Positions 12,027 to 47,863 of a stretch of DNA of 64,000 bases are shown here, one piece after another. The notes beneath the pieces are model-generated. The model did no database searches. It was not told the origin of the DNA and was given only the letters and a program-made list of their open reading frames with translations. Positions within the stretch are counted from its first letter, which is position 1. Each line of letters starts with the position of its first letter. Both the position numbers and the translations under genes were made by a program. The stretch lies in the NCBI RefSeq assembly GCF_988243305.1, contig NZ_OZ547136.1, one strand, 5' to 3'.

Positions 12027-12899
12027 TCAGAAGAAAATCCAGTTCCATACCGCGCGGGCAACAGAGACCACCGAGTCACGGACGGCTCGCAGAACCGTAC
12101 GAGCCACAGAGGCAACACAGACGCTCTCCGCTGTGTCAAATATCCGGTCCACCGCACCGGTAAACTGTTCACGGGCCTGAGAGCGGACAGACTCCGTGCG
12201 CAGTTCGTCCTGCAGGCGGGTCATCAGGGGGCTGGCGGCATGGTCGGGAAGCGCTGTCATGAGCGCACTGACCAGCGTATCCAGTTCCCAGCCGGTGCAG
12301 GCCGATACGGCCACAACCGGATGTACGGGCCGGAACAGCCGGAATACCGCCTCCGTTTTCTCACGAATGTTCTGTGCCTGTGCGGGAGAAGGCTGAATGC
12401 CGGCCATATCCCATTCATGGCAGGGCTCCGTTTTGTCGGCCTGCGTCACCACAAACAGCACCTGCTGATGTCCCCGGTGCAGGATGTGTCGCCAGAAATA
12501 CTCATCCACAGACAGGGCACGGTCATCGGCTTTAATCAGCCACAGTACCAGGTCAAGTTCAGGCAGAATGTCACGGTACAGGGCTTCATACTCTGCATCC
12601 CTGTCCCGGCTCTCGCCCACCCCGGGCAGGTCAGTGATAATCATGCTGTGACCGTGGCCACTCAGACGGAAGCGCCGCACTTCCCGGGTGCCGGCGTGAA
12701 CATCACTGACCGGGGTGACCTCCCCCTGAAACAGCGCATTACAGAGTGAGGATTTACCGGCCCCGCTTTTACCCATAATGCCAATCACGGGTTCGTGACT
12801 GGTGAGTTTGCGCAGATGTTCCTGGATGTGACGGGAAAGTGAGTAAGGCAGGGAGGAGAGCGGTTTTTCAATTGCCTCAATGGCATCAGACGGATTCAT
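12027..12899 (-). CDS. YfjP/YeeP/YkfA-family GTPase
   Basis: P-loop GIMGKSGAGKSS and DLPG motifs; conserved CP4-type gene; start taken at MNPSDAIE. Confidence 0.8.
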   Translation of the reverse strand: MNPSDAIEAIEKPLSSLPYSLSRHIQEHLRKLTSHEPVIGIMGKSGAGKSSLCNALFQGEVTPVSDVHAGTREVRRFRLSGHGHSMIITDLPGVGESRDRDAEYEALYRDILPELDLVLWLIKADDRALSVDEYFWRHILHRGHQQVLFVVTQADKTEPCHEWDMAGIQPSPAQAQNIREKTEAVFRLFRPVHPVVAVSACTGWELDTLVSALMTALPDHAASPLMTRLQDELRTESVRSQAREQFTGAVDRIFDTAESVCVASVARTVLRAVRDSVVSVARAVWNWIFF

Positions 12900-12983
12900 A
12901 CATGTATTCCCGGTGAAAAAAGACAAAACCCCCGCACACCGGAAAGGTGGCGGGGGACTCACAGAGATAATATATGTCTGAAA

Positions 12984-13901
12984 TTATCTGGAATGTCGGT
13001 ACCTTTTATACTCTTCAACAATCAGGTCATGCAGCATTTCGCCGGTACTGAGTCTTCTGACCCTCGATAATTCTTTGAGCTGCGCCCTGGTTTCTGCGTC
13101 AAGAAAAAACTGTACATTGACTTTATCTTCCTGCATTTTTTTGTACTTGCGCTGCGCCTTGGCCTTATTGAAACTGTTTCTGAAATTTTTTATATCGTCA
13201 GGTGAGGTGAGTGTACAGGTAACCCATATGTCAAATGAAAGGTGAATTGCGTGGTAAATATCAGCAGAACCAGGAAAACTGGCCAGTTTTTCCAGTGCAA
13301 TATTTTTTCCCTTCAAATAATTCCATGTCCATATGCATTCATGTTCGTTCTCCGGGAGGAGGTAACTGAAAGGACTCTTTGATTTAAATGCCCGTATCCA
13401 TCTGTCTTTGGTCTGGATTATCCACTCATCCCGCAAATTCTTATCAGAAAGAATATCGAGAACTCTGAGTATTTGTCTGAACTGTGTCGATGAGTCCGAC
13501 GGGAAGGCATTCCCTTCTAAATACTCTTCTTTAAGATACAGTTTATTCTTTTGAAGCAAGTCTGCACTTATTTTTGCCCTGTTATTCTGGATAAACTGCA
13601 TCAACAGATACCAGGAAAATAAGCATGCGCGTTCACTGCCCGCGATCCAGGATATTTTTTCCAGGGGGACCAGGAAGGCCTGGGCCTTCAGACGCATACC
13701 AGAAATGATTTGTTCAAGTTCAAAATCTGAAAGTGTGATGTTCAGATTTTCTCTGTTTTTTTTTATGTAAGCGATAAAACGTTCCGGGGGATCATAAACA
13801 TTAAGGGGCAGTACGGAGATATTACGCTCTCCAAGATAATAAGAGTAATACGCATTTGTTCTTTCATTCATAACCTTATCCGACAAAATTTTCTGAACCA
13901 T
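12984..13901 (-). CDS. Hypothetical protein (305 aa), AT-rich, with C-terminal ribbon-helix-helix-like segment
   Basis: Long ORF with low-GC codon usage; C-terminus VQFFLDAETRAQLKELSRVRRLSTGEMLHDLIVEEY resembles CopG/Arc-type RHH. Confidence 0.55.
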   Translation of the reverse strand: MVQKILSDKVMNERTNAYYSYYLGERNISVLPLNVYDPPERFIAYIKKNRENLNITLSDFELEQIISGMRLKAQAFLVPLEKISWIAGSERACLFSWYLLMQFIQNNRAKISADLLQKNKLYLKEEYLEGNAFPSDSSTQFRQILRVLDILSDKNLRDEWIIQTKDRWIRAFKSKSPFSYLLPENEHECIWTWNYLKGKNIALEKLASFPGSADIYHAIHLSFDIWVTCTLTSPDDIKNFRNSFNKAKAQRKYKKMQEDKVNVQFFLDAETRAQLKELSRVRRLSTGEMLHDLIVEEYKRYRHSR

Positions 13902-15101
13902 CCCCTTTCTCCGGTTGCTTAAAAATTAAACACAACAAGGTGATAATAACATGATAAAAAGAAGTTTATAATGGTATATTAAGGTGGTCAATAAAAAGGC
14001 AATCTGCGCACTGTATAGTCATTATGACAGGAAATGCAGGAGGAAGGGAAGGTAACCGGCTTCGTTATGCTGACAGGAATACCTGTTATCATGGAAGTGC
14101 ATTCATGTGGCCGACGTAGCTTAAGAGGATGGAAGAGTGGAGACTGCAGACAGGGGGTATTGAAAGGTAAACATGTTTCGCCCGCCAGCTGCACCGGAGG
14201 CCAGCATCACTTTTTTTACGTTGTAACCTGGTATGCATTCCGGCTTTGATGATTACAGTCAGAGGGCAGCAGACTGACGTTATTTAACCGGACAGCAAAA
14301 TTATGGACACTGAAATATCGTCCGTTAATACCTCGTTTGTCGGTGTGGTATTCCCTGTATTACCGGCGTCACCGATAAAGAGAGTTATAAACGCCAGAAA
14401 GGTACCTGCTTTATGCCGGGGAACACTTATGGAAAATGAAGTCTGAAAAGGAGCACAATGAAAAGAGACGTGTCCCGTAAATATAACGAATCATCGCAGG
14501 ATATGCATTATCAGGTGATACCAGAGTGCATTAAACTGCCGTCACGGATAAGAATATACAACATTTCTGATAACAAAACATCATAACGTGTTTCAGATAT
14601 GTTCCGGCATCAGTCTGACGGATATTATTTCCCGGGAAAACAAACCTGCTACTGTGACGGTTAACTGTATCTGCATAAATTATTTATGATGAAAGAACAG
14701 TATTACGGATTCAAATATCATCCTGTTTGCATTCAGGCGGACATTCCCGGATGCCGAAAAGAATATCCTGCAGGCTGAGTGAGTCTCTTCCACAGTGCCG
14801 GGATCGCTGTCGCCACGTACATATTGTCACCAGGATGGGTATGTACCGCAGCATGCCATTTCTGGTGAATAACCGCACCTGCACATTCAGTCTGCTGAGA
14901 ACCTGGCGTGCATCGGGCTGTAAAGAACATCCCTGTCCGTGGCTCCTCTGGTGGTGTTGCCTGCTCAGTAATGACAGGATGCCCTTAAGACGCCCGTCAT
15001 GGCTCAGTATGATGACGACGAACACGCTCTGCAGGTGAGCATGCGGGGCCGGGAGCATCATCATTTCCGTATTTTGTCACACCTTCCGGAAGCAACCGGC
15101 A

Positions 15102-15719
15102 TCAGTTGCGGTTATCGTCAACCGTTGTGCGGTATGCCAGGAGCACGTACTGATCCATCAGATCCGTCAGTGCTGCGCTCTGCCTCTGACGGTTGATGAT
15201 CCATTCCTCCAGCTCTTTTTCTGATTTCCGTTTCAGGTTCTCTTTCCAGTCTTCAAGGCTGTTTCCGGTCATTAAATCAAGCCAGCAAAGCCAGACCAGT
15301 TTGAGGCGCAACTCCGTGCCACCAAACTGACGGAAGAGGCTAATCAGTTTATTTGCCAGAGAACGCTGCCTCAGACGTTCACATTCAGACAGGAGAATGC
15401 CTTCCAGCATCGGATGATGAACCAGCAGATGTTCACTGGTGCATAAATTCACTATCAGATCATCATCCAGGGGCGGCGTGGCCCGTTTGTCAGGGCCATA
15501 AATCAGCCGGTGCAGGCTCTGGGGTACGATGGCAATCTCCGGTTTTTCACCATTGAATGACACCCACCCGGGCGTCAGATTATGGAAGTAGTAGATATTC
15601 GGATGACACACGCCCCAGGATACGGCGTGCCGGGTGAAGCCGGTCAGCCATTTCTGGTAGCTTTCGTGGAGCAGTTCGTAACGGGTCTGATACTGTTGTT
15701 TCATTTTCATATTCCTCAC
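15102..15719 (-). CDS. Hypothetical protein (205 aa) downstream of alpA
   Basis: ORF on the backbone strand; family not recognised. Confidence 0.45.
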   Translation of the reverse strand: MRNMKMKQQYQTRYELLHESYQKWLTGFTRHAVSWGVCHPNIYYFHNLTPGWVSFNGEKPEIAIVPQSLHRLIYGPDKRATPPLDDDLIVNLCTSEHLLVHHPMLEGILLSECERLRQRSLANKLISLFRQFGGTELRLKLVWLCWLDLMTGNSLEDWKENLKRKSEKELEEWIINRQRQSAALTDLMDQYVLLAYRTTVDDNRN

Positions 15720-15798
15720 GGGGATATAACAGGCAGCAGAATGCCGCCGGCAGGCCGGGGATTACGTCTGCTGCGGGTGAACGGATAACGGTCAGAAA

Positions 15799-16005
15799 TT
15801 ACGGACGGGACTGTGCAATACGCGCCTGCAGCCAGGCTTCCACTTCACTTTTCAGCCATCGGGAACTGCGGCCCAGCTTGATGGGGGCCGGAAAGGCCCC
15901 ATCCCTGATGAGTTTGTAAAACCACTTATCGGTCAGGCCAGTCAGTTGAGTGATAAACGCCATGTCGACCATCTGGTCATCCATCAGTGAAACTGGGGTG
16001 GTCAT
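15799..16005 (-). CDS. alpA: AlpA-family transcriptional regulator / excisionase-like protein
   Basis: MTTPVSLMDDQMVDMAFITQLTGLTDKWFYKLIRDGAFPAPIKLGRSSRW… matches AlpA. Confidence 0.8.
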   Translation of the reverse strand: MTTPVSLMDDQMVDMAFITQLTGLTDKWFYKLIRDGAFPAPIKLGRSSRWLKSEVEAWLQARIAQSRP

Positions 16006-16911
16006 GAGAATGTTCCTCCGGATGTTGTTAATCTCAACCGGCGTTGGTGATGAAAACAACGCACCACCTTCACCGGCATAACAACCGGGGAGAAACGTAA
16101 AAAATAATCGGGAATGTGACCGCCAGGAGATAAACGGGGGGATTGCGGTGGCTGAGCCGTACCGGTATGTCGGGTGGTTGTTGCGAAACGATGCTTCCGC
16201 ACGCGATAAAGGAGGGAGGACTTTCGTGAGACAAGGGGAAAACTAGCGTTCTGATAATTGCAGAGTTGTTTTTGAAGGCGGTTGTGGTATATCAGCCTGT
16301 GACCTGTGGGCAGGCGACAGTTATCACTGGTGGGATAATACTGTCTGATTGGTATTATAAATATATAAGAGAGATCAAACACATGAGATCAAACACATGA
16401 GTTCATATATGTGAAATAAATCTGTGAGTGTGATCAGCAGACCAGTCTACCCAGTAGCAACAGATTGCGTTGTACTCACAGGGTTATCCCTGATAACTGG
16501 CGTATAACCTGCGTACATAAAACGTACCTGCAATGCACCTGAACAGAGTGCATTAAGCATCCGCCTGAGCGGTAAACGTATCCGATCTGGTGAGTGACAG
16601 TCTGAGAGCATTCTCAGTAATCGCCCCCTTGTATCCTGGAAATTGGTTAAGATAACAGCGATTAGATTTGGCAAGGTGTATGCAGCCAGCAGCTTAACAT
16701 CTCAGCTAACTGGCTGGTTACCTTCAGGTTGTCGCAATGGCATCGGACATCCGGTGTCGGATAACTAAACGTAGCGTTAAGGCGATATTGCTGAGAGACC
16801 GGTTAAGTGGTTGCACGGGAGTAATGAGTTTGGGGAGGGCACCAGAATGCCAGGTTGGTGCGGTATGCTGACAGCATCCTGTTAACCGCAGCATAAAGTA
16901 ATGAGAGGCTA

Positions 16912-17124
16912 ATGGAAGTTAAAACCAAAGAAGACTGGCTGTATCAGCTCCGTCGTTGTTCATCCCGGGAGACACTGGAAAAAGTGATTTCCCACACACG
17001 TTATAAACTTACCCCTGCGGAGCTGGAAGCCTTCAACTCTGCGGTCGATCACCGGCTGGCAGAACTGACAATGAACAAGCTTTACGATCGCGTGCCGGCT
17101 TCAGTCTGGAAATATGTCATCTGA
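16912..17124 (+). CDS. Hha/YmoA-family nucleoid-associated modulator
   Basis: 70 aa; …[14 protein letters not shown]…VPASVWKYV closely parallels Hha/Cnu. Confidence 0.8.
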
Positions 17125-17720: not shown

Positions 17721-18326
17721 GTGGCTATTCCGTATGAACCATACGGAGATTTAACCATGACCTACAAATACAACCCCTTCTGGCAGCAACGTATTCGTGA
17801 GACGGTGCGGCACGCACTGAATGTTCATCCCCGCCTGACGGCATTGCGGGTTGACCTGCGTCTCCCGGATGTACCGGCAGCAACGGACGCAGCTGTGATA
17901 TCCCGCTTCATCAATGCCCTGAAAGCCCGAATCGACGCTTACCAGAAACGTAAGCATCGGGAAGGTAAACGCGTGCATCCCACAACCCTGCATTACGTCT
18001 GGGCCCGGGAGTTTGGGGAGTGCAAAGGTAAAAAACACTATCACCTGCTGCTGCTGGTCAACCGGGATACCTGGTGTCGTGCCGGTGATTACCGCGCTCC
18101 GGGGTCACTGGCCGGGATGATTAAACAGGCCTGGTGCAGTGCCCTGGGAGTGGATGCCGGACGTTATGACACGCTGGCACATTTTCCGGTCAGGCCGGCG
18201 GTGTGGCTGGAACGCGATGATGACACCGGCTTTCAGCAGGTGCTGGAGCGTGCTGACTATCTGGCGAAGGAGAGTACCAAAGCTTACGGCACCGGTGAGC
18301 GCAACTTTGGCTGCAGTCGTGGCTGA
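17721..18326 (+). CDS. YagK/YfjJ-family (inovirus Gp2-like) protein with HUH-like motif
   Basis: HYHLLLLVN His-hydrophobic-His motif; family assignment from memory; start may be the internal Met at 17757. Confidence 0.55.
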   Translation: MAIPYEPYGDLTMTYKYNPFWQQRIRETVRHALNVHPRLTALRVDLRLPDVPAATDAAVISRFINALKARIDAYQKRKHREGKRVHPTTLHYVWAREFGECKGKKHYHLLLLVNRDTWCRAGDYRAPGSLAGMIKQAWCSALGVDAGRYDTLAHFPVRPAVWLERDDDTGFQQVLERADYLAKESTKAYGTGERNFGCSRG

Positions 18327-44835: not shown

Positions 44836-47179
44836 TGGTGATTTGTTTTAATTTGTCGATTGAACAAACGCACAATCCGGGCTGAGTTCCCTCAAAGTGA
44901 TCTACTATTCCGTGCAGCTATTTAGATCAAGGCTAAGGCAGGAATTTTATGTAATTAATGCTAGAGGTAAACGTTGTGGGTAAATGGTTTGCATGGTTAA
45001 TATTTAACCATAAGGAATAAGAGGTATTGCAGAATTAATTCCGTATAGTTATTCTTCTTGTAAGAAGATTTTTGGGTGCTAGTGATAAATTACAGAGCCT
45101 ATAGAAATGTAAAGTAACAAATCACAGAATAAGGATACAATAGCATAATTTATTGTCACACAAAGCCCCAAGACATTCTGTAATAAAAGGAATTTCCATA
45201 AGAAGAACCATTGACAATAATATGAGCACCACCATTGTAGAGATATTTATTTATGACTGAAAAGGAACTCCAAAATTTGGCTATTTCTATATATGAAAGG
45301 CAACGAGAGAAGTTATCACGTGAGACAGAGTGTAATAAATCTACCTCAATAAGATTTGCCCTAGAAGATTTCCTAAAGAATGCTCCGAAACGTATGCGAT
45401 CTGCGCGTGCTCGCCCCCCAGGGTAATAAATGTCGCAAACTCTGATAATATTTTTATGAAAACAAGCATATTTACAAACGTAAACTAATGATTCTAATTT
45501 GACAGAATATAAACTATAAGTATTAATAAATACCATACGGAGCAGAAAAAAATATCAAAATGAGTTAATTTGATTAGAAAGATTTATCCCATTTATAAAG
45601 ATAATTGTAGAAAGATTCATTGACTCTAAGAGCAAATAAGGAGAGGGCATACAGGATATAACTAGTACTCATAATAAAAATCCCTCTACCGATATAAGTA
45701 AAATTTATTTCCCAGACGAGTTTTTAATAATACATATCAGAAACAGTGCTAAACGATGGGCCGTAATCCTCATGAATAGTAACTCATGGTTATTTTACAC
45801 TGGATTATCGGTGGGGTAATTCTGATAATAGAAACACCTGAAAAACTAAAATCATTAATTTTAAAATACAACCATATACTCATCAAACTCTCGATACACC
45901 ATTCTTCTTTTAAAGTAAAGAAAAACTCTATCTGTGCTTATGTTCCACAACATAAATAGAATAAAAAAATTAAGGATTTATATATTAAGAGTGAATTTAC
46001 ATTTTAGGCTAACTTTAGTACATATTAATTATTGTTTCTTATTAATTTTAAACTTCAAAAGCTATATCAAGGGTTGCCACTTCTATCTGCGACTAACAGC
46101 ATATCTATCAGCAACAATTGATTAATTCCAGCACCTCATGTCGGCGCGATCTGGTGGAAAAGCCATTCCACCAAAACAACCCCAAGCGCTGGCACGTTGG
46201 GGAGATCTGCACTGTGAACCAGCTGGCAATGAGCCGCTTTATTATCGAGTTCGGTGACCGCCTAGACGGTCACTTCTGAGAAAAGGCATTTACACAGAAT
46301 CCTAAACCGGCTCGCAGGTTTCCCCCACTCCCCATCCGCACTCAAGTTCAGACGGCGAATAACATAGCTAATCAGCTCATTACGGAATGACTACCATCCA
46401 GATAGTGTGCCGCAGTTTAAGGTTCGGTCAACCGCTTTTTAACCATTCAGCATTGCCTACAATACAAATAAGGAGCCTTATATTATGCCTAATCTCTGTA
46501 TGCTGCATAGTGCCGGGTGCCTCCCGGTGAGTCCAGCCTGGTGTCTCTGAACCCGCATAGAAAGGATTAGGGTAATATAAAAACAAACACCTGTTACTGA
46601 TATGCTCCGCCGCTTAGGGGAGTTCACCATACATTTTTATTTTTAACAAAAAAGCTCAAGGCGACAATAATAAATACTATAAAATGTGAGCAGCATAACA
46701 TTTTAACTTAGTAACTAATATTCACTAAACTTACCAATTCACATACGCCCCACGGCATGGCAAAGCTTCGTTACGTTAGTTTATACCACATAGGTATTAT
46801 TACCAAACTAAATAATCACTTTACGCTCTGTATTTTGCCTGTTTTCACTGCGGTTTTTCTCAATACCCCGTCCAGAATAACGTTAACACATTATTAACTT
46901 AAATCCGGAGAACATGATGATGACTGGATTCAAACACACTTAACATGAATATCCTCTATCCATTAAAATAACTGTCATTGAGCCGGTTGAAAAAACGAGA
47001 TGAACTATAAACAGATCTAGCAGTGGCATGGCTGGCGAATGGCGTTATCAATCCACTGCCTTTACTGAGTGCTGAATATCCCTTCACTGACCTGGAAGAG
47101 GTGCTACGTTTCGCCGGTGATAAAACCCAGGCATCAAAAGTCCAGCTTGTTTTCTTAGAGATAAATAAAGGAATAATAC

Positions 47180-47863
47180 AATGAACAAGCAATTTTCACT
47201 GGCAGAAAAAATATCTTGATTACCGGATCAGCACAGGGCATTGGCTTTTTACTGGCAACCGGTCTGGGTAAATATGGCGCACAAATAATTATTAATAATA
47301 TTACTGCCGAACGCGCATAACTTGCTGTAGAAAAACTCCACCAGGTGGGTATTCAGGCCGTTGCCGCACCTTTTAATGTTACTCATAAACATGAAATTGA
47401 TGCCGCCGTTGAACATATCGAAAAGGACATCGGCCCCATTGATGTGCTGGTGAATAACGCCGGTATCCAGCGCCGTCATCCTTTTACTGAGTTCCCTGAA
47501 CAAGAGTGGAATGATGTGATCGCAGTAAACCAGACCGCCGTGTTCCTGGTGTCGCAAGCGGTAACCCGTCACATGGTTGAACGCAAGGCAGGTAAAGTTA
47601 TTAATATTTGCTCGATGCAAAGCGAACTGGGACGTGGCACCATCACCCCTTATGCCGCATCGAAAGGGGCGGTAAAAATGCTCACCCGCGGCATGTGCGT
47701 CGAGCTGGCGTGCCACAATATTCAGGTCAACGGTATTGCGCCGGGCTATTTCAAAACAGAAATGACTAAAGCACTGGTTGAGGACGAAGCCTTCACCGCC
47801 TGGTTGTGCAAGAACAAATTTCCATTGCGGGTTTTTATGGGCTGGAGATTGGCAGGCAAATGA
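47180..47863 (+). pseudogene. idnO: Gluconate 5-dehydrogenase idnO pseudogene (frameshift, in-frame stop, 3' truncation)
   Basis: MNKQFSLAEK… then frameshift; …ITGSAQGIGFLLATGLGKYGAQII… and a 172-aa ORF match IdnO; C-terminus diverges. Confidence 0.8.

Follow-up and report, generated by a model that had tools for sequence, protein, structure and literature searches.

A probable regulatory spacer and frameshifted alpA relic in a 1.2-kb ORF-poor gap of an Escherichia coli island

The window analysed here is a stretch of 64,000 nucleotides from contig NZ_OZ547136.1 (RefSeq assembly GCF_988243305.1), and the gap under study, positions 13902-15101, is the exact interval between the start of a 305-aa gene (13901) and the stop of a 205-aa gene (15102), as an earlier note on this DNA had placed it. 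Beyond the 205-aa gene lies an intact alpA, which matches PF05930 with E=1.4e-8 (Table 1). The note had called such an ORF-poor stretch unusual, which stands only in part: the window contains seven stretches of at least 600 nt without an ORF of at least 120 aa, and the gap ranks second among them in length, and is therefore notable, but not unique. The longest such stretch, 45537-47248, extends over 1712 nt without any ORF of at least 120 aa. The statement that no ORF of 60 codons or more occupies the gap was not strictly correct, in that the gap fully encloses five mechanical ORFs with lengths of 60-117 codons; the two smaller ORFs that the note had seen are both present, with 47 and 42 codons. 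The longest gap ORF, of 117 aa, compares with 91 ± 22 aa in 500 dinucleotide shuffles of the gap, 12% of which reach 117 aa, and the ORF content of the gap is at chance level.

Table 1. Features of the gap and its surroundings; positions are those of the window, except in the last row
Feature	Position	Strand	Basis or remark
305-aa gene	12984..13901	-	
IG1, ancestral divergent intergenic region between 305-aa gene and original alpA	13902..14302		blastn and alignments
Putative promoter and leader of 305-aa gene	13930..13991	-	promoter scan and cross-lineage conservation
Leader TTTTATCATGTTATTATCACCTT	13937-13959	-	near-invariant across five lineages
Putative -10, TAAACT	13963-13968	-	consensus match only
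Putative -35, TTGACC	13986-13991	-	consensus match only
Gap ORF, 68 aa	13988..14194	-	
Gap ORF, 71 aa	14034..14249	+	
10-bp palindrome AAACATGTTT	14169..14178		candidate operator in IG1
alpA upstream relic	14207..14302	+	invariant TTTTTTTACGT (14211-14221), AACCGGA...ATG
alpA pseudogene relic	14303..14478	+	nhmmer and frameshift-tolerant alignment
47-codon ORF	14303..14446	+	starts at ancestral alpA ATG
42-codon ORF	14458..14586	+	AAGGAG box in front
Possible 197-aa gene fragment (codons ~49-72)	14624..14693	+	nhmmer, suggestive only
Gap ORF, 117 aa	14711..15064	-	
Gap ORF, 103 aa	14727..15038	+	
Gap ORF, 65 aa	14733..14930	-	
3′ flank common to alpA/205-aa module of other E. coli island variants	14779..15101		unconstrained
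Weak terminator-like hairpin	14838-14857	+	
Sixth ORF, 65 aa	14999..15196	+	crosses gap end into 205-aa gene
Weak terminator-like hairpin	15050-15069	+	
205-aa gene	15102..15719	-	
Intact alpA	about 15799..16059	-	beyond 205-aa gene
IstB relics of sister islands	L005 3315-3694; L006 1026-1432; L007 4045-4478; L008 3601-3735		equivalent spacer

Among 5426 complete E. coli genomes, 1918 contain the gap DNA, on the chromosome in every case, and 1285 of these have it at full length, with 96-99.8% identity. RefSeq annotation leaves it empty save for two sporadic 65-aa “hypothetical proteins”. In some strains it is interrupted by IS1, IS50 or IS66 insertions or by deletions, and BL21(DE3) has kept only the first ~150 bp beside the 305-aa gene (to ~14054). 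The best match, in strain cM8a (NZ_CM176589.1, 819785-821084; 99.8%), spans 1300 bp in two pieces for the 1200-bp query, and its gap therefore contains an insertion of ~100 bp. Plasmid and phage collections yielded nothing new for the gap, and a literature search by protein accession and topic found nothing on the locus.

Diverged homologues of the 305-aa protein occur in Salmonella enterica (79%), Serratia (68-69%), Enterobacter, Edwardsiella and further assemblies; a GTDB scan with this protein gave a single locus, in Serratia, and the wider set was obtained by protein search and contig look-ups. We compared five homologue contexts (L011, L018, L019, L020 and L021), in all of which the opposite strand carries alpA together with a homologue (177 or 197 aa) of the 205-aa gene, both divergent from the 305-aa and GTPase genes. 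The distance from alpA to the 305-aa gene is ~420 bp in L018-L020 and ~290 bp in the Serratia locus L011; in L021 a Gp2-like gene is placed between the two. In these related islands a yagK-like gene follows beyond the alpA module. Two homologues with 91-92% identity were considered as candidate intermediates: the contig of one (P0075) has the same arrangement as the window, and the 2.2-kb contig of the other (P0074) carries only a 284-aa gene.

When the window was aligned with the related loci by blastn, 12925-14221 matched in one orientation (L018 4977->3666, with L019 and L020 likewise), and 15179-16104, which comprises the 205-aa gene and alpA with the 94 nt in front of it, matched in the other, while the yagK-like gene at 17898-18011 shared the orientation of the first block. 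Thus the alpA/205-aa block, which has the 305-aa gene on one side and the yagK-like gene on the other, is inverted in comparison with the Salmonella-type loci, as it would be after a simple in-place inversion of this segment that left the gap as a scar with no pseudogene in it. However, the alpA upstream motif and the 5′ half of alpA are present twice in the window, at ~14207-14400 on the plus strand and at 15900-16104 on the minus strand, and inversion cannot yield two copies; nor is the match at 14207-14400 spurious, since none of 500 shuffled gaps came close to it, and we regard an in-place inversion as extremely improbable. The presence of two copies would therefore point to either an inverted duplication or recombination between related islands.

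The plus-strand copy was detected with an nhmmer profile of the alpA-p197 operon built only from Salmonella-type loci, which matched the gap at ~14207-14400 with E-values of 4.7e-8 to 1.3e-9 (18.2 bits at 4.7e-8); the best score among 500 shuffled gaps was 1.2 bits. Homology is unbroken in the alignments from the 305-aa gene through IG1 to the alpA start, and the ancestral alpA ATG, at 14303, lies 402 bp from the ATG of the 305-aa gene, compared with an IG1 length of ~420 bp in its relatives (L018-L020). A frameshift-tolerant protein-DNA alignment to an AlpA profile (z=4.8-5.0) extends to AlpA residue ~39 (14418), and the relic can be followed to ~14478 only with relaxed penalties, its 3′ part being 35-39% identical beyond ~14420. 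Indels of +7, -8 and -4 nt and stops break the homologous frame, and the 3′ half of the ~68-codon gene is eroded; it is therefore a pseudogene. Pfam gave zero matches, even at E≤10, for the 47-codon ORF and for the frameshift-repaired relic peptide, and the BLASTP alignment of the repaired peptide to AlpA (41% identity, E=3e-7) is circular and illustrative only.

The AlpA/Phage_AlpA family (PF05930) comprises the CP4-57 prophage regulator and the P4 Vis-like excisionase/activator genes of integrative islands and satellites. The relic resembles its members in that its DNA is homologous to a true alpA, occupies the same position and has kept the upstream motif TTTTTTTACGT, but differs from them in being frameshifted, with a 3′ half that can no longer be recognised, and in falling below every Pfam threshold. 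Comparison with homologous islands, which the earlier note had proposed, was informative, in that the related islands hold an intact alpA at the position of the relic. A decayed gene, which was one of the options in the note, is thus found in part of the gap, as an alpA relic from 14303 to ~14420 at the ancestral divergent position, but not in the rest; this homology to a known gene fragment, which the note had set against its more interesting readings, largely refutes them.

An alpA-like relic (nhmmer E=6e-4) was also observed at 2226-2324 of L005, another island variant from ST131, in which a different gene, of 290 aa, precedes the GTPase gene; the relic lies upstream of this pre-GTPase gene and on the other strand from the live alpA of L005. 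An architecture with a dead alpA may therefore be a general one in this E. coli island family. Two other observations concern genes near the live alpA. An 88-aa hypothetical gene (WP_000840364; 4746..5012 in L003), which is divergent from alpA in other strains, corresponds to 16147-16413 and is split by a frameshift in the window into ORFs 16148..16246 and 16266..16400. Further on, 16912-17124 contains an open 70-aa Hha/YmoA-like ORF; in near-identical strains RefSeq treats its equivalent as a partial pseudogene of hha without the N-terminus (L001 9030..9209).

The first ~400 bp of the gap constitute a conserved, probably regulatory spacer of the 305-aa gene, an option absent from the earlier note. 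Near the 305-aa gene, IG1 is 75-79% identical to the Salmonella-type islands, and towards the dead alpA this value goes down to 50-57%. At 13930-13969, ~90% of positions are identical in four other lineages, as compared with 72-79% in the adjoining coding DNA; a minus-strand site found here by a promoter scan is the putative promoter of the 305-aa gene, and the leader belongs to the same block. A second conservation peak (0.84 at 14170-14189) includes the palindrome, the counterpart of which is TGAACATGTTCA in three of the four other lineages, so that the E. coli change is symmetric, and GGACATGTTCA in Serratia; it is mutated (G14175A) in two of nine E. coli strains. The spacer also carries TATCA repeats 11 nt apart. 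Upstream of the putative 305-aa promoter there is a direct repeat, GTCATTATGACAGGAA (14018-14033) and GTTATGCTGACAGGAA (14064-14079), 46 nt apart, the CTGTC core of which is partly conserved in Serratia, and which might represent possible regulator sites.

We infer that the conserved blocks may provide the 305-aa/GTPase arm with its promoter, leader and operator, and that the part of the spacer proximal to the 305-aa gene would have stayed under constraint. The arrangement is reminiscent of the divergent promoter/operator regions of small-regulator operons (autoregulated, of the RHH or HTH type), with which it shares a spacer of ~400 bp, a leader, the TATCA repeats and a palindrome, as well as a 305-aa protein with a weak Arc-like C-terminus (E=0.07). 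It is unlike them in that the alpA partner is dead here and the palindrome is not intact in every strain (two of nine mutated). One could go further and view the leader, the palindrome and the relic alpA promoter as a working regulatory switch, in which read-through or convergent transcription from the live alpA/205-aa operon, passing over the dead alpA, would tune the 305-aa/GTPase arm. We consider such a switch very unlikely; if it did operate, the apparent “junk” would be a transcriptional-interference buffer or a source of antisense RNA.

At the relic are the two small ORFs, in which gene callers predict proteins in many E. coli genomes. Coding potential was assessed in nine aligned E. coli copies (96.7-99.8% identity), in which the flanking genes display synonymous to nonsynonymous ratios of 8:11 and 17:15 and zero indels. 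In spite of the strong AAGGAG box in front of it, the 42-codon ORF has one synonymous and nine nonsynonymous substitutions, mainly at first codon positions, a 15-nt deletion in one copy (L012) and a frameshifting 1-nt insertion in another (L003), and the members of its cluster measure 33, 38, 42 and 53 aa; it is not maintained as coding sequence, and the small protein suggested in the earlier note is, for this ORF, shortened or broken in other strains. The 47-codon ORF has two synonymous and three nonsynonymous substitutions, too few to judge, and its length is kept in most cluster members, although its homologues are E. coli ORF calls only; it begins at the frameshifted alpA start, with no Shine-Dalgarno box, and is a chance frame arising from the start codon of the dead alpA. 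The remaining gap ORFs have ratios of 3:8 (with a stop variant), 2:10, 3:10 (with indels) and 2:8. Substitution patterns in the gap ORFs are neutral-like. There are 3-5 variable sites per 100 nt over most of the gap versus 3.0 and 5.5 in the flanking genes, and, given the shallow divergence of the E. coli copies, weak constraint on the gap may exist.

Searches for homologues were similarly negative. Pfam, PHROGs and NCBIfam run on all gap ORFs, and Pfam run on six frames, gave zero matches. An exhaustive HMMER comparison of all inter-stop segments from 38 aa upwards with 1.84 billion representative proteins returned 43 matches, all of them short E. coli ORF calls with 73-100% identity or deletion/IS chimeras, and homologues of the gap ORFs are absent from this collection outside near-identical E. 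coli DNA. A tblastn match to Serratia DNA (E=2e-4) was judged on inspection to be due to chance. Against the ribosome-binding box, the gene calls and the retained length of the 47-codon ORF there stand, then, the damage to the 42-codon ORF, the neutral ratios, stop variant and indels of the larger ORFs, the loss of the reading frames in L005, L006 and L008, and the lack of family matches and of distant homologues, and it is very improbable that either small ORF or another gap ORF encodes a real small protein. Both small ORFs are by-products of the alpA relic.

Homologous islands account for ~500 bp of the 1200-bp gap, plus a possible 70-bp fragment. The last part, the 3′ flank at 14779-15101, is found in other island variants directly downstream of the 205-aa homologues. 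It is 86.5% identical to L005 and 70% identical to L006/L007, with indels and, in L008, a 117-nt deletion, as compared with 94% and 79% identity at third-codon positions of the neighbouring gene in the same comparisons; this segment diverges faster than third-codon positions, and is therefore unconstrained.

Could the remainder be what is left of the original partner of alpA, so that the whole gap would be a dead alpA plus 197-aa operon, tail-to-tail with the live copy as the result of an ancient inverted duplication? The size is suggestive: the ancestral IG1, alpA, spacer and 197-aa gene add up to ~1318 bp versus the 1200-bp gap. A weak nhmmer match at 14624-14693 (E=0.09-0.24) is collinear with the alpA relic, although equally good scores are reached by 9 of 500 shuffled gaps, and a frameshift-tolerant alignment to the Salmonella-type profile gives z=2.8-3.3 at 14661-14972. 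On the other hand, the positions that these two weak alignments assign to the same codons are incompatible, z is 0.1-0.5 for the homologous module of L005, L006 and L008, the protein HMM and the full-family profile were negative, and a DNA profile of the shared flank (14560-15101 and its homologues) did not match any 197/205-aa gene. A decayed 197/205-aa gene in 14480-15101 was thus tested in five ways and not demonstrated; we treat a dead operon filling the whole gap as possible, but on balance doubtful.

The 320-bp block of the 3′ flank, unannotated and common to several island variants, raises the question of whether the gap encodes a small RNA, as the earlier note had considered, or a structured cis-acting RNA, for instance in the 3′ flank of the 205-aa gene or at the relic alpA promoter. 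Two weak terminator-like hairpins are found on the plus strand, and no intrinsic terminator was found on the minus strand inside the gap or after the 205-aa gene, so that read-through from this gene across the gap is predicted to be likely. Nevertheless, the covariance search that the note had recommended, with Rfam 15 models on both strands of 12500-16800, gave zero matches at E≤1; fold z-scores of the shared block are +0.40 and -0.40, and those of 120-nt windows across the gap, on both strands, are never below -2.2. The block diverges faster than synonymous sites and has tolerated indels and the 117-nt deletion. An RNA gene is, accordingly, decidedly unlikely, and the small-RNA option of the note was not borne out. 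Outside the gap, the 3′ end of the 205-aa gene (15100-15219) folds far better than its shuffles (z=-3.78 on the plus strand and -2.22 on the minus strand), and the sole other 120-nt window with a low z in 13500-15460 is 15300-15419 (z=-2.63, minus strand).

We also examined insertion sequences as a source of the gap DNA. Six-frame Pfam searches detected no transposase homology in the gap, and no repeat families or significant or terminal inverted repeats were found in it. In the sister islands, the pseudogenes annotated as “AAA family ATPase” or “ATP-binding protein” in the equivalent spacers are relics of IS21-family IstB (Table 1), adjoined in L006 and L007 by a fragment annotated as IS21 transposase/hypothetical, presumably IstA. 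We had considered these “AAA ATPase” pseudogenes as a lost island gene, and rejected this, as they are IS21 IstB/IstA relics; no counterpart of them was detected in the window gap. The locus is similar to other mosaic enterobacterial islands (CP4-like, or carrying Ag43 and GTPase genes) in that a redundant regulator decays after module shuffling and in that sister spacers contain IS insertions and IS21 istA/istB relics, but differs in that the present copy has no IS remnant of its own.

Overall, the gap is most likely non-coding, consisting of a regulatory spacer, a frameshifted alpA relic and unconstrained filler. In this explanation, 13902-14302 would be the original divergent spacer of ~400 bp, still with the promoter and leader of the 305-aa/GTPase genes; 14303 to ~14420/14480 would be the frameshifted remnant of an alpA that once faced away from the 305-aa gene; and ~14480-15101 (~620 bp) would be unconstrained filler, the last 320 bp of which probably move together with the intact, oppositely oriented alpA/205-aa module. 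The cargo arm (the 305-aa gene, the GTPase gene and the following genes) may have brought a divergent alpA/197-aa pair of its own; a second, intact alpA/205-aa module would then have come to lie alongside in the opposite orientation, through inverted duplication or through recombination with a related island, after which the native alpA, now redundant, and probably the 197-aa gene too, would have decayed.

The verdict is that of an ordinary intergenic region, which opens no new biological question. It would nevertheless document the way in which this island family is assembled, two related alpA modules having been joined and one of them left decaying, and the leader and palindrome that are shared across genera may provide a handle on how the uncharacterised pair of 305-aa and GTPase genes is regulated. 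In over 1200 complete E. coli genomes this DNA is either left without annotation or given spurious 65-aa “hypothetical proteins”, and reading it as a regulatory spacer followed by an alpA pseudogene would remove such false gene calls.
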